Shown one piece after another: positions 16,040 through 53,768 of a DNA stretch of 64,000 nt. Both the position numbers and the translations under genes were made by a program. Within the stretch, counting starts at the first letter, position 1; each line of letters begins with the position of its first letter. The DNA is from Phapecoctavirus DIJ07P2. The stretch lies in the sequence record OZ035771.1; one strand, 5' to 3'. A model generated the notes under the pieces. The model worked only from the letters and a program-made list of their open reading frames with translations, was not told the origin of the DNA and made no database searches.

Positions 16040-16077
16040 ATATTGATTTCAGTTTAATAGGAAGAGAATTGTTAGAT

Positions 16078-17076
16078 ATGCCAGTAAAGAAGAGTATTGA
16101 AACATATATGGAAGAATGTAAGCCGATAGCTGAGGCTAAAGGGATTACCATTCTCGGCACGTATGGAGAAGATAAAGGTGTGCATACGAAGATGATCAAT
16201 AGTTGTGAGCATGGTCATGAATGGAATACTACAACGTTTCACAGTTTTAAAGATGGTCGAGGTTGTCCTAAGTGCGCCTACAGGGAACGTTCGAAAAAGA
16301 GAAGCAAAGCTATCACTATTCCAGACCAGCAACACATACAAGATTTTATGAAGGTAGGTAAATTTAAGGAAGGCACTATTTTCACCAATACAGGGGAACG
16401 TAAAGGGTGTGATATAGTATGGATGGTTGAATGTCCTGTTTGCTCTCATGATGAATATGTGGAAGCTGGGGTGTGTGATGGTAAATTCTATGCTACCGGA
16501 AGTCATCTTAAACGTGGGTGTCTCCCTTGCCGCTGTTCTACGAGTTACAAATACACAGAGGATCAGACCACCTATAGAACAAGAAAGGAAGTAGAAAGGA
16601 GAGGATATATATTGGTAGGATGGATCGGTAAACCTTCAACAATGGGTAAGTTTAAATATAGATGTAAGGAGCACGGGGAACAGATAGGGCGTGCAGATGG
16701 TTTGCTACATAAGGGGAGTGGGTGTCCGCAGTGCGGGGGCCAAAATCAACAACAATGTTACATTAATCATATTTATGATGAAGATGGTATTCTTTGTGCA
16801 CTGAAGTTTGGTATTGCCAATAGTAGTGATCGCCGTATCAAAGAACAGAATAGCCGCAATGTGTTTACTATGAGACAAGTTCAAGTGTGGCAGTTCCCCA
16901 CTGTGAAGCAGTGTAAAAATTCAGAAAAGTATTGCAAAAAGGTGTTAGACACAGAAGCAGTGAGCAAATATGCTATGCCAGACGGCTACACAGAAACAGT
17001 GGAGCTATCTTGTCTGGCATCAATACAAAACATTTATAAACTTTATGGTGGAATATTACAGGAGGAAACATGTTAG
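16078..17076 (+). CDS. Cys-rich protein with repeated G-x-G-C-P-x-C zinc-ribbon-like motifs; possible nuclease
   Basis: DGRGCPKCAY, KRGCLPCRC, GSGCPQCGG repeats; function not assignable by eye. Confidence 0.5.
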   Translation: MPVKKSIETYMEECKPIAEAKGITILGTYGEDKGVHTKMINSCEHGHEWNTTTFHSFKDGRGCPKCAYRERSKKRSKAITIPDQQHIQDFMKVGKFKEGTIFTNTGERKGCDIVWMVECPVCSHDEYVEAGVCDGKFYATGSHLKRGCLPCRCSTSYKYTEDQTTYRTRKEVERRGYILVGWIGKPSTMGKFKYRCKEHGEQIGRADGLLHKGSGCPQCGGQNQQQCYINHIYDEDGILCALKFGIANSSDRRIKEQNSRNVFTMRQVQVWQFPTVKQCKNSEKYCKKVLDTEAVSKYAMPDGYTETVELSCLASIQNIYKLYGGILQEETC

Positions 17077-51216: not shown

Positions 51217-51238
51217 AAGAAATGCCCCCGAAGGGGCA
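51217..51238 (-). terminator. Minus-strand terminator (TGCCCC-TTCG-GGGGCA + T-tract)
   Basis: Between HslV-like stop and next RBS. Confidence 0.5.
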
Positions 51239-51243
51239 GTTTG

Positions 51244-51936
51244 TTAAATAGCGGTTCCTTCGAAATCCGCCACATTTACGAGATTAATATTTTCAGATTT
51301 AGAAGTCAAGTTGTTTTCTGCAACAGATTTTTCTTCAGTATCCGCCTCGTTACCTGCCACGTTACGAGGTTCTTCTTCACCGTAGGGATTACCGAATTTC
51401 AAAAGATTGATTAATTCTTCTTTGGAGAAGTTTTCTAAATCATCGTCTGTTAATTCAATAATCTCGTCTTGTTCTTCAATAAATGTTTCACCACCAGAAA
51501 AAGCATCTCGCTTTTTAGCTACTTCCATAGCTTGTTCTGGTGTTGCCCCTGCATCAAGAGCAGCTAAAGCAAAGTCTGACCCACTTCCTACTGCATAATA
51601 TTCTTCATCAATCGGATATGCACGTGTTGGATTGTTACCTTCGTGCAGGAAAATACGTCCGTCTGGATGAACAACAAGCGCAATAAACTCTTCATCTTCT
51701 TTATCTGGATCAGAATGAATCATCAAACCAGGGACAGCATCACGTGCTGCTTCGCACTGTAGGTTTTGTTCAAACCATTGAAAGAAAGAAAGCACGGAGG
51801 TCAGACGACCAGCACCACCTACAAGGTAATCTCCAATTTTTCGGACCTTTTTGAAATTAATAGAATCTACACGTCCGCCAAAAGTTACCTTACCATCACT
51901 CAAAATCTTATTCTTGGTTGCAATAATTGTCGTCAC
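51244..51936 (-). CDS. HslV/proteasome-beta-like Ntn peptidase with acidic C-terminal extension
   Basis: MTTIIA N-terminus (Thr after Met), FKKVRKIGDYLVGGAG and YYAVGSGSDFALAAL resemble HslV; about 60-aa acidic tail. Confidence 0.6.
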   Translation of the reverse strand: MTTIIATKNKILSDGKVTFGGRVDSINFKKVRKIGDYLVGGAGRLTSVLSFFQWFEQNLQCEAARDAVPGLMIHSDPDKEDEEFIALVVHPDGRIFLHEGNNPTRAYPIDEEYYAVGSGSDFALAALDAGATPEQAMEVAKKRDAFSGGETFIEEQDEIIELTDDDLENFSKEELINLLKFGNPYGEEEPRNVAGNEADTEEKSVAENNLTSKSENINLVNVADFEGTAI

Positions 51937-52439
51937 TATTCTTCCTCCTCTGTTAATGTTTTAAGAACCGCTTTCCCGCCATTCACATATTTGCAGATGT
52001 ATTCTATCGCACGTAGTGTCTCTTTGTCAACAAAAATTTGATCAGACGTTGCGAGCGGGTTATTAAGAAGATCACTGCAATCACGAACAAGCAGTGCTTT
52101 CTTATTAAACAAATTACTTAAGAACAGTAACTTCGCCTCTTCTTCTGTTATGTGCAGAAGGCTAGGATCGGAGCCAGCTATTCCTATTATACAATCAAAC
52201 AAGCTTTCTTTACTATCAGAAAGTTCTTGAAAATGGTTTAAAAGCCAATCTTCTCCTAGACACCAACATTTAAACATTTCCAGTTTATCTCGGAGGGTCA
52301 TATTCTCTAAAGTAAGAGCAATCTCTTTTTCAATATGGTTTACACAAATTTGACGAAATTCGTTAGGTTTTACGAGTCCCGTTTGATAGCACTCATCTAT
52401 ACCACTTCTTCCGATAGCTATTGTTGCTACACCCATCAA
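51936..52439 (-). CDS. Hypothetical protein (167 aa)
   Basis: Stop-start overlaps HslV-like gene. Confidence 0.5.
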   Translation of the reverse strand: MMGVATIAIGRSGIDECYQTGLVKPNEFRQICVNHIEKEIALTLENMTLRDKLEMFKCWCLGEDWLLNHFQELSDSKESLFDCIIGIAGSDPSLLHITEEEAKLLFLSNLFNKKALLVRDCSDLLNNPLATSDQIFVDKETLRAIEYICKYVNGGKAVLKTLTEEEE

Positions 52440-52471: not shown

Positions 52472-53230
52472 TTAAATAAACACTTCAGTAATCAGTTTAG
52501 ACAAACGTCCACGTTTATTATCGTCCGTTGTCAGTTCAACATATCCAATAAAATCTACAATTGGCTCACGAACACCTTCTTCATTTTCTGGATATAAAAG
52601 TTCCAAAATTTGATGCAGACCATTGCTACGTTTTTTAATTGCATATGTCTGGCGAACATCGCCTAATACAATAACATGCGTATTAATACCTGCACGTTCA
52701 ATAAGAAGTTTAAGTGTTTCTGTTGACATAAGTTGTGCTTCGTCAATAATGACAATTGTATTATCCAGGGTAGCTCCCAACAAATAGTTAGGAATATTCA
52801 ATTCGATCTTACCTGATCCAATATCATTTTCCAATTTATTGGCTGTCATGAATTGCTGGAAAATACGTTTTGTAGATTCGTAGTGTGCTGCTAGTTTATC
52901 TGTTTTATCCCCAGACAAGAAACCAATCTGGTCATCTCCGACTTCAGTAGGGTTCTTGATAAAAAGTAGTTTACGGAAGTCTCCTGAACGAAGCATCTGC
53001 AAAGCTTTCCATAAAGCAACAGAGGTTTTACCAGTCCCTGCCGGAGCATTTACAACAGTCAGATCATTCCAAATCATGCTTTGAACAATCTTATTTTGGT
53101 CCCCTTCAGGCATAAATTCATCTAAACGGTAATCGTCATTACCTACCGCTTTTGCTGCATAACGGCTTTCAATCTTTGCTGAATTAGCCAGTTTCTGCCG
53201 TTGTGTTTTAGCTGCGGTTTTATTTCCCAT
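52472..53230 (-). CDS. phoH: PhoH-like ATPase
   Basis: Walker A PAGTGKTS and Walker B VIIDEAQ; start moved to MGNK after AAGGAG. Confidence 0.85.
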   Translation of the reverse strand: MGNKTAAKTQRQKLANSAKIESRYAAKAVGNDDYRLDEFMPEGDQNKIVQSMIWNDLTVVNAPAGTGKTSVALWKALQMLRSGDFRKLLFIKNPTEVGDDQIGFLSGDKTDKLAAHYESTKRIFQQFMTANKLENDIGSGKIELNIPNYLLGATLDNTIVIIDEAQLMSTETLKLLIERAGINTHVIVLGDVRQTYAIKKRSNGLHQILELLYPENEEGVREPIVDFIGYVELTTDDNKRGRLSKLITEVFI

Positions 53231-53246
53231 AGTAGCACTCCTTTTA

Positions 53247-53266
53247 GAAGGGGCCGAAGCCCCTTT
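53247..53266 (-). promoter_or_regulatory. Conserved GGGGC-CGAA-GCCCC stem-loop between lysozyme and phoH
   Basis: Same hairpin as at 39754 and 58609, here without minus-strand T-tract. Confidence 0.4.
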
Positions 53267-53267
53267 A

Positions 53268-53768
53268 TTAGTTGTAAGCATCTAAAGTTCCAGAAGTCAG
53301 AACTTTAATTACTCGTTCAGCACGGTTTGGCGTCTGGCTATACCATCGGCTTTTACGCATGTTTTTACCTGCTTGAGTATAATATGCATTGCTGATTAAA
53401 GTCAAGCTATTTTTAAACCCTTCAGCACCTTTTAACCCCAACTGGAAAACCATGTTGATTATTCCCAATTTACGAGTATCACTCACCTTATCATAGATTG
53501 GTGATAAGATAGCACTGTTTTTTATGTCTCTCTTCACTTTTGCAACATCGTCAGCAAAGATTTGACGGGCTTCTTTTTCTGTGATAACTCCATTGGTCTT
53601 ACGACCAAGGAGATTATCTAAGATTTGAATAGCCTTTGCTTTATCTTTTATTTTAGTCAGAAGGTGTCCTATGCCGACTGTCCAATAACCAAGATGGTCT
53701 TGATAAACAGTAAGCTTCAGTCCTTCATCGACTCGTAGCATATCAAACTCATCTACTACTTTAGCCAT
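53268..53768 (-). CDS. T4-type lysozyme (endolysin)
   Basis: FDMLRVDEGLKLTVYQDHLGYWTVGIGHLLTK and NMVFQLG...SRWYSQTPNRAERVI closely parallel T4 lysozyme as recalled. Confidence 0.9.
   Translation of the reverse strand: MAKVVDEFDMLRVDEGLKLTVYQDHLGYWTVGIGHLLTKIKDKAKAIQILDNLLGRKTNGVITEKEARQIFADDVAKVKRDIKNSAILSPIYDKVSDTRKLGIINMVFQLGLKGAEGFKNSLTLISNAYYTQAGKNMRKSRWYSQTPNRAERVIKVLTSGTLDAYN

Follow-up and report, generated by a model that had tools for sequence, protein, structure and literature searches.

A peptidase of Phapecoctavirus DIJ07P2 with a modelled proteasome/HslV fold, a fit to the PPH/RPC type and an acidic C-terminal tail

Phapecoctavirus DIJ07P2 (sequence record OZ035771.1) encodes a 230-aa protein whose modelled fold is the alpha-beta-beta-alpha Ntn fold of the proteasome/HslV superfamily. 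The protein fits the PPH/RPC type of proteasome homologues and stands nearer to PPH than to HslV. The gene lies within the 64,000-nt stretch of DNA that was analysed (hereafter the window), and its features are collected in Table 1. Taken jointly, the evidence makes it quite probable that this is an N-terminal-threonine peptidase of the superfamily that lacks a propeptide, is of PPH/RPC type rather than HslV, belongs to a phage-only sub-clade marked by a C-terminal helix and an acidic tail, and acts in the cytoplasm with no dedicated phage unfoldase. The finding is real but ordinary and already known, because the gene is annotated in RefSeq, the PHROG is named, the family was published in 2021 and an HslV-like gene without HslU has been noted in another phage. 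What is added here is a firmer placement as PPH/RPC type rather than HslV, a controlled absence of HslU, a description of the phage-only tailed sub-clade with its conserved gene order, and the setting aside of two phage ATPases and of head maturation as likely explanations.

Table 1. Features of the peptidase gene and of its genomic surroundings, in coordinates of the window.
Feature	Coordinates	Strand	Details
Gene of the putative PPH-type proteasome/HslV-like Ntn peptidase	51244..51936	-	230 aa, GTG start, stop codon included
Catalytic core, residues 1-155	51472..51936	-	Alignments A1, A3 and A4; AlphaFold2; Foldseek
Content of the core			T2, D14, K30, G41-A42-G43, G117-S118-G119, D144, S147; H1 at 45-67; acidic loop 68-83
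Conserved helical motif 3' of the core, about residues 160-183, LTDDDLENFSKEELINLLKFGNP	51388..51459	-	Alignments and model
Acidic tail, predicted disordered, residues 184-230	51247..51387	-	pLDDT
Ribosome-binding site GAGGAGG	51944..51950	-	7 nt 5' of the GTG, within the final codons of orf167
orf167	51936..52439	-	Stop codon overlaps the peptidase start codon
Terminator-like hairpin TGCCCC-TTCG-GGGGCA plus TTTCTT	51223..51238	-	Directly 3' of the peptidase stop; pattern match alone
PhoH-like P-loop ATPase	52472..53281	-	PF02562, 126.5 bits; upstream of the peptidase; listed as context only, not as a shown partner
AAA-family ATPase, 379 aa	14861..16000	+	PF00004, 29.9 bits

The superfamily assignment draws on both sequence and structure. 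The peptidase scores 25.6 bits against Pfam PF00227 (gathering cut-off 22.4, E = 1.1e-5) and matches PHROG 1040, 'peptidase HslV family', at 1.6e-63. A search of PDB chains with its sequence returned HslV and 20S beta subunits only, the HslV chains being the best matches (to 4.9e-9). An AlphaFold2 monomer model was built on 29 homologues, and the pLDDT of core residues 1-155 is mostly above 90. Foldseek aligned this model with a probability of 1.0 to HslV, BPH and 20S beta subunits, and 810 PDB chains were matched at E <= 1e-3. The best matches are the HslV proteins of S. aureus, B. anthracis, T. maritima and E. coli (target-normalised TM 0.67-0.70), followed by BPH and then by archaeal and eukaryotic beta subunits.

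The residues expected for catalysis are conserved across the family. In three alignments (A1, A3 and A4) reaching down to about 30% identity, M1, T2, D14, K30, G43 and G117-S118-G119 show no variation, and G41, D144 and S147 show little or none. The catalytic equivalents in the proteasome are Thr1, Asp17, Lys33, the oxyanion Gly, Ser129, Asp166 and Ser169, and by alignment the catalytic set of the superfamily is complete in the phage peptidase. The N-terminus reads MTTIIATK, and there is no propeptide. The MTT start is invariant among the aligned homologues, and of 145 representatives newly obtained in a whole-library profile search, 129 share it. Methionine aminopeptidase removes the initiator Met where the second residue is small, and from this known specificity we infer that loss of Met1 would expose the Thr nucleophile. 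Given the MTT start and the lack of a propeptide, methionine aminopeptidase alone would therefore be enough.

These results bear out much of a preliminary description made from the sequence of the window. It had reported a 230-aa protein starting MTT, which is an ORF with a GTG start and a ribosome-binding site. The HslV-like Lys and GSG segments that it pointed out correspond to K30 in FKKVRK and to G117-S118-G119 in AVGSGS. Its proposal of an N-terminal Thr nucleophile agrees with the invariance of T2 and the lack of a propeptide, removal of the Met being deduced. It had staked its reading on an Ntn fold and a conserved catalytic Thr; the former is what Foldseek recovers, and the latter is retained throughout the alignments.

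Its designation as an HslV-like peptidase holds for the fold and the catalytic set, but the protein is not an HslV orthologue, as judged from the equivalog scores and from the missing H2 in the model. Against the HslV equivalog NF003964 the peptidase reaches 32.2 bits (cut-off 137), and against TIGR03692 it reaches 31.4 bits (cut-off 157.75), whereas the corresponding values for the control, E. coli HslV, are 304 and 288 bits. In the HMM search suggested at the outset, PF00227 was therefore above its cut-off and both HslV equivalogs were below theirs. In the AlphaFold2 model, helix H1 (residues 45-67) is followed by a 16-residue acidic coil, VPGLMIHSDPDKEDEE (68-83), and then by the next strand; H2 is absent.

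HslV (ClpQ, the peptidase of HslUV) is nonetheless the nearest solved fold (TM about 0.7). HslV itself is a dodecamer built from two hexameric rings. The two share equivalents of Thr1, Asp17, Lys33 and GSG, a Met-Thr-Thr start and hydrophobic residues on H1. They differ in that the phage peptidase is only about 27% identical to E. coli HslV, lacks H2 in the model, is not accompanied by a phage hslU and carries a C-terminal tail. It also reads RDAFSGG where E. coli HslV reads GDICIYT, and RDAFSGG is presumably a motif typical of 20S beta subunits. BPH and Anbu resemble the phage peptidase as stand-alone, proteasome-like bacterial homologues with no known unfoldase or partner ATPase gene. The long acidic pore loop of BPH has a possible parallel in the acidic DPDKEDEE (76-83) of the phage peptidase, which lies in the H2/pore-loop region. 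However, BPH and Anbu both keep H1 and H2, and neither is a phage protein. Anbu furthermore has a long C-terminal helix H5, and BPH gives a poorer Foldseek alignment than HslV (TM 0.54-0.55).

The PPH family was described by Fuchs, Alva and Lupas in 2021 in 'An astonishing wealth of new proteasome homologs' (PMC8665760). PPH proteins are about 140 aa long, have neither H2 nor a propeptide and are encoded by tailed phages (PMC8665760). The related RPC proteins carry a C-terminal extension and were reported only from proteobacterial genomes; among the homologues, H2 is missing only in PPH and RPC (PMC8665760). The phage peptidase resembles PPH as a tailed-phage gene product with an M-T-T start, no propeptide, a compact core, the catalytic triad and the oxyanion Gly, a predicted structure in which H2 is missing, and no associated unfoldase gene. 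In a family-profile search, MTT-starting proteins of 137-160 aa scored 100-124 bits, well above the 43 bits of E. coli HslV. The nearest relatives outside the tailed sub-clade are, at these scores, proteins of about 140 aa that have the properties of PPH.

The correspondence with either published family is incomplete. At 230 aa (about 155 for the core alone), the phage peptidase is longer than the roughly 140 aa of PPH, and it adds a C-terminal extension of about 75 residues in which a conserved helix motif precedes an acidic tail predicted to be disordered. With RPC it shares a PPH-like core without H2 and a C-terminal extension pointing away from the presumed ring; RPC, however, is found in proteobacterial genomes, whereas the present tailed sub-clade is found in phage genomes and viral contigs only. 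The fit to the PPH/RPC type is one of published properties and proxy profile scores, rather than of direct comparison with the PPH/RPC reference sequences (WP_042125023.1, WP_140207863).

The preliminary description had also remarked that no HslU partner accompanies the peptidase, and the searches agree. A tblastn search with E. coli HslU at E <= 1e-3 gave no match in the window or in the complete genome of Escherichia phage nepoznato, nor was there one in the 6-kb flanks at 83 phage loci encoding relatives. As a positive control, the same search recovered a strong hslU (>200 bits) at 67 of 80 bacterial HslV-like loci, and in the control loci listed it lies immediately downstream of the HslV-like gene. 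HslU homologues are present in some jumbo phages of Erwinia and Salmonella. Among the matches listed for the search of phage records there was no Phapecoctavirus, and only four Escherichia-named records matched. An HslV-like gene with no adjoining HslU had been remarked on earlier in a Salmonella jumbo phage (PMC7823757). The window does encode an AAA ATPase, which lies 36 kb from the peptidase and is not HslU-like.

The peptidase might instead borrow its unfoldase from the host, as a functional substitute for HslV that docks onto host HslU or another host AAA+ unfoldase and redirects host ATP-dependent proteolysis. The nearest solved structures are after all those of HslV. All identified hosts of the tailed sub-clade (Escherichia, Klebsiella, Vibrio and Aeromonas) are Proteobacteria, and E. 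coli has hslVU. H2 contributes to the apical docking surface of HslV, as established HslUV structures show. The pocket of HslV that receives the HslU tail includes F54, F57, A79 and K80 (PMC6429459), of which F54 and F57 align with the hydrophobic L49 and F52 on H1 of the phage peptidase. A79 and K80, by our reading of the HslV sequence, would lie on H2, and with H2 absent from the model, both the pocket and the docking surface would be incomplete. The scores of more than 100 bits below both HslV equivalog cut-offs likewise weigh against docking onto host HslU, and we consider such a role improbable, if the best placed of the alternatives.

For the favoured reading, a PPH/RPC-type peptidase with no dedicated phage unfoldase, we propose the following course of action. 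The methionine aminopeptidase of the host would remove Met1 and leave the Thr nucleophile at the N-terminus. The peptidase would then assemble into HslV-like rings; this step is assumed from homology, the model being that of a monomer. The assumption is weakened because the loss of H2 could alter the quaternary structure, and Fuchs et al. noted that quaternary structure might differ in several of the new homologues (PMC8665760). From the position of the gene we infer that the peptidase is produced alongside the replication genes. Its targets in the cytoplasm of the infected cell would be proteins or peptides of the host or of the phage, rather than the capsid, and it would need no dedicated phage unfoldase. 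As a docking or regulatory element it may use the C-terminal helix together with the acidic tail. Degradation of host factors, one of the roles originally suggested for the protein, is possible.

The long acidic tail that had been noted at the outset comprises residues 156-230 and has a net charge of -15 and a pI of 4.05. The conserved part of the extension is L-T-x-E-x-L-x-x-[FML]-[ST]-K-E-[EQ]-L-L, which is LTDDDLENFSKEELINLL in this phage. It is kept across the tailed sub-clade down to about 30% identity and is modelled as two helices (164-169 and 172-181) with a pLDDT of about 85. The tail that follows the motif has no sequence conservation, and pLDDT falls below 50 over residues 192-230. 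Acidity is retained all the same: beyond residue 155, helix included, the extension is acidic in every tailed homologue, with net charges of -2 to -27 that are mostly -9 or lower. The sub-clade comprises 59 cluster representatives at E <= 1e-30 against the profile; among the matches listed, these are 183-350 aa long, with the extension placed after the core. Some relatives carry extra C-terminal modules that are absent from the DIJ07P2 peptidase. A SAP/HeH-like reading of these modules was rejected, the only match being a non-significant one to Rho_N (E = 0.39).

Relatives of the peptidase were found by tblastn in 233 phage records (107 Escherichia, 36 Vibrio, 28 Caulobacter, 15 Aeromonas, 10 Klebsiella, 10 Rhizobium and others) and also on 80 viral contigs. 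The 107 Escherichia phage records equal the count obtained for another conserved gene of the subfamily. When 185,579 species of bacteria and archaea were scanned, with one genome for each, the tailed sub-clade was not found, save for one contig of 425 nt. This contig is 100% identical to phage and looks like phage contamination, and the remaining matches of the scan are at most 37% identical and mostly, at 67 of 80 loci, accompanied by hslU. Because the scan gave only this one phage-identical contig, the tailed sub-clade appears, on sequence evidence, to be confined to phages, unlike the published RPC.

A bolder reading of the extension takes the tailed sub-clade as a self-sufficient 'mini-proteasome'. 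The helix and acidic tail would replace the role of HslU, either by gating or activating the ring or by acting as a nucleic-acid-like or partner-like bait that recruits host proteins, perhaps together with PhoH and, in the coliphages, with orf167. If this were true, the phage would possess a tool for the targeted destruction of host factors, for example defence or nucleoid proteins. We regard it as speculative and put its chances low.

The peptidase could also be non-degradative, namely a sequence-specific processing enzyme, a connectase-like ligase or a catalytically silent scaffold. The archaeal connectase is a proteasome homologue that acts as a monomeric ligase (PMC8665760). The missing H2 leaves room for non-canonical assemblies, and the tight coupling to orf167 described below could mean a specific substrate or partner. 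The hallmarks of connectase, however, are a pair of helices inserted between S3 and S4 and the lack of H1 as well as H2 (PMC8665760), while the peptidase model has H1 and no S3/S4 insertion. A connectase-like role is disfavoured because these defining features are missing, and the complete and invariant catalytic set speaks against a pseudo-enzyme. A non-degradative function is thus rather unlikely.

The genomic neighbourhood bears on the favoured reading of a cytoplasmic peptidase without a dedicated phage unfoldase. The 4-kb surroundings of the gene are 99.5% identical to those in Escherichia phage nepoznato (Phapecoctavirus, Stephanstirmvirinae) and 98-99% identical to those in dozens of other phAPEC8-like phages. 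RefSeq labels the nepoznato homologue (JR323_gp217) 'peptidase HslV family', and other depositors have called the gene 'ATP-dependent protease subunit' or 'putative proteasome component'. The peptidase belongs to a same-strand block that encodes NrdA, NrdB, dTDP-sugar enzymes, glutaredoxin, lysozyme, PhoH, orf167, the peptidase and orf144, and that continues with a Dam-like methyltransferase, a Ser/Thr phosphatase and a DprA-like gene. This part of the genome serves replication and nucleotide metabolism and is well removed from the structural genes. At every locus with at least 60% peptidase identity, the cassette running from glutaredoxin to the methyltransferase is kept.

The immediate neighbour, rightly described before as an uncharacterised 167-aa ORF, is conserved and has no family assignment. 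It is 167 aa long from a TTG and 166 aa long from the ATG at 52436 used by RefSeq, and its fold is predicted to be all-alpha. In all loci with at least 60% peptidase identity, orf167 abuts the peptidase with an overlap or a gap of at most 10 nt, and the ribosome-binding site of the peptidase sits in its end codons. The Vibrio- and Aeromonas-type members (34-38% identity) lack orf167, with PhoH still upstream on the same strand. Vibrio phage 424E50-1 has a PIN-PhoH fusion, a 58-aa ORF and then the peptidase, and a further locus (L024) has PhoH, a 74-aa ORF and the peptidase. Adjacency to PhoH is the sole recurrent association found for the peptidase.

A phage ATPase, either the PhoH-like protein or the AAA ATPase, might be thought to stand in for HslU. 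As a P-loop ATPase, PhoH is akin to SF1 helicases, and it is not known as an unfoldase. The order of PhoH, a small ORF and the peptidase is kept across the tailed sub-clade to about 35% identity, even where PhoH is fused to a PIN domain. Yet NrdAB and other neighbours are equally syntenic, so the adjacency may be merely inherited, and on the strength of this synteny we read it as inherited gene order rather than as a functional pair. PhoH was also rejected as a general neighbour of PPH genes. A first clustering had placed it beside 10 of 30 PPH groups, but four of these were SNF2 helicases joined by single-linkage clustering, and it is such helicases that made up the apparent 'PhoH' near distant PPH groups. 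Genuine PhoH adjacency is confined to the tailed sub-clade.

The 379-aa AAA ATPase has a PF00004 domain and is weakly similar to unfoldases of the Cdc48/VAT/Rix7 type. Its homologues occur in 394 phage records, many of them from phages without a peptidase match, among these Enterococcus, Bacillus, Staphylococcus and crAss-like phages, and the peptidase-carrying phages of Vibrio, Caulobacter and Rhizobium are absent from the ten commonest organism groups of the search. It was rejected as the dedicated partner because its phage distribution differs from that of the peptidase. Replacement of HslU by either phage ATPase is accordingly very unlikely.

Least likely of all, to the point that we give it hardly any weight, is a role in virion maturation as a prohead or tail protease: phages commonly encode maturation proteases and RefSeq labels no nepoznato gene as a prohead protease, but the structural module is far from the replication and nucleotide-metabolism block that contains the peptidase gene, relatives of the peptidase in very different phages (Caulobacter, Vibrio, jumbo) are also outside structural modules, and the XkdF/S78-like JR323_gp002 beside the portal gene is the likelier head protease. 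JR323_gp002 scores 44.9 bits against Peptidase_S78_2/XkdF (cut-off 24), although RefSeq labels it 'DNA methyltransferase'. A head-maturation role, and with it the processing of virion proteins proposed in the preliminary description, is unlikely because of the gene position and of this separate protease.

In the literature we found no biochemical or genetic study of any phage proteasome homologue (PPH), and nothing on function, transcription timing or proteomics in this phage group. Proteasome-like peptidases are widespread in large phages. The proteasome-like fold is seen in 44 BFVD structure clusters, and the family profile matches about 10,500 cluster representatives. The peptidase studied here is kept across the whole of the Stephanstirmvirinae, phages that infect E. 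coli K-12, and could thus be a convenient entry point and a practical model. It raises the question of how a ring protease works without an unfoldase, and of which proteins the phage must degrade.

Some smaller features of the locus remain to be mentioned. A single base (51936) of the sequence TAGTG is common to the GTG start of the peptidase and the TAG stop of orf167, and relatives keep GGAGG at the equivalent position 5' of the peptidase. RefSeq places a 'repeat_region' feature here; a search for repeats inside the peptidase gene gave nothing above 15-nt chance matches. A sigma-70 promoter within orf167 (52030..52001, 11 of 12 matches) was considered and rejected. Because the synonymous positions vary among relatives, the match is probably a by-product of the codons for VDKETLRAIEY.

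The gene immediately upstream of the peptidase, orf167, is predicted to encode an all-alpha protein (pLDDT 91), a fold for which a comparison with the PDB returned no match. Its strictly invariant motifs are C16-Y17, VKPNEFRQ, VRDCSD and KETLR, and they include two invariant cysteines. In the coliphage relatives, orf167 and the peptidase are translationally linked without exception. A sigma-70-like site lies inside orf167, approximately 65 nt upstream of the peptidase start, and a comparison of synonymous positions with relatives revealed no conservation of this site. The peptidase stop codon is immediately followed by a GC-rich hairpin whose loop is TTCG. Distant phages of the Vibrio and Aeromonas types again show the P-loop ATPase gene PhoH, a small unrelated ORF and a tailed peptidase in this order, and in one of these phages PhoH is fused to a PIN domain (PIN-PhoH).

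Positions of the features discussed (window coordinates unless a locus or accession is named)
Feature	Position	Strand	Remarks
orf167	51936..52439	-	
Sigma-70-like site	52001..52030	-	11 of 12 positions matched; inside orf167
Hairpin 3' of peptidase	51223..51238	-	T-rich stretch follows
PhoH, small ORF, tailed peptidase	L002 3334..5867		
PhoH, small ORF, tailed peptidase	L024 2954..4822		
PhoH, small ORF, tailed peptidase	L003 1541..5885		
Portal neighbour in nepoznato (L086)	NC_052658.1 1313..1792		Outside the window; RefSeq name 'DNA methyltransferase'
UvrD-type helicase, 875 aa	4574..7204	-	Hint/intein-splicing domain matches
AAA-family ATPase, 379 aa	14861..16000	+	PF00004, PHROG 2376
Endonuclease	16069..17076	+	CapR-homology domain, HNH-like features

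Peptidase homologs with an extension after the core can carry extra C-terminal modules (P0133, P0137-P0141 and P0175, at their C-termini; P0061-P0063). Many of them share a conserved module, roughly L..ia..L.v.YAHNIS.EKLa.RLdEKvkEiv, that looks SAP/HeH-like from its sequence; its only Pfam match, to Rho_N, is non-significant. Other tailed relatives possess a C-terminal domain rich in Cys and Trp. The window peptidase has neither module. A 425-nt contig from a 'Lysobacteraceae bacterium' assembly (JAPMLR010000072.1) matches the phage peptidase with 100% identity over the latter's residues 68-208, most likely because the assembly is contaminated with phage DNA.

In Escherichia phage nepoznato, a near-identical relative, the neighbour of the portal gene matches Peptidase_S78_2, an XkdF-type phage protease family, with 44.9 bits (cut-off 24). 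It probably encodes a prohead protease that RefSeq has misnamed.

Because residues 252-598 of the window's UvrD-type helicase match Hint/intein-splicing domains, its gene appears to be interrupted by an intein. The putative counterpart in nepoznato carries the annotation 'DNA helicase / UvrD-type helicase' and has a length of only ~530 aa. Elsewhere in the window, the gene for the AAA-family ATPase adjoins that of the CapR-homology/HNH-like endonuclease. Homologs of this ATPase are common in large phages of Gram-positive and Gram-negative hosts alike.
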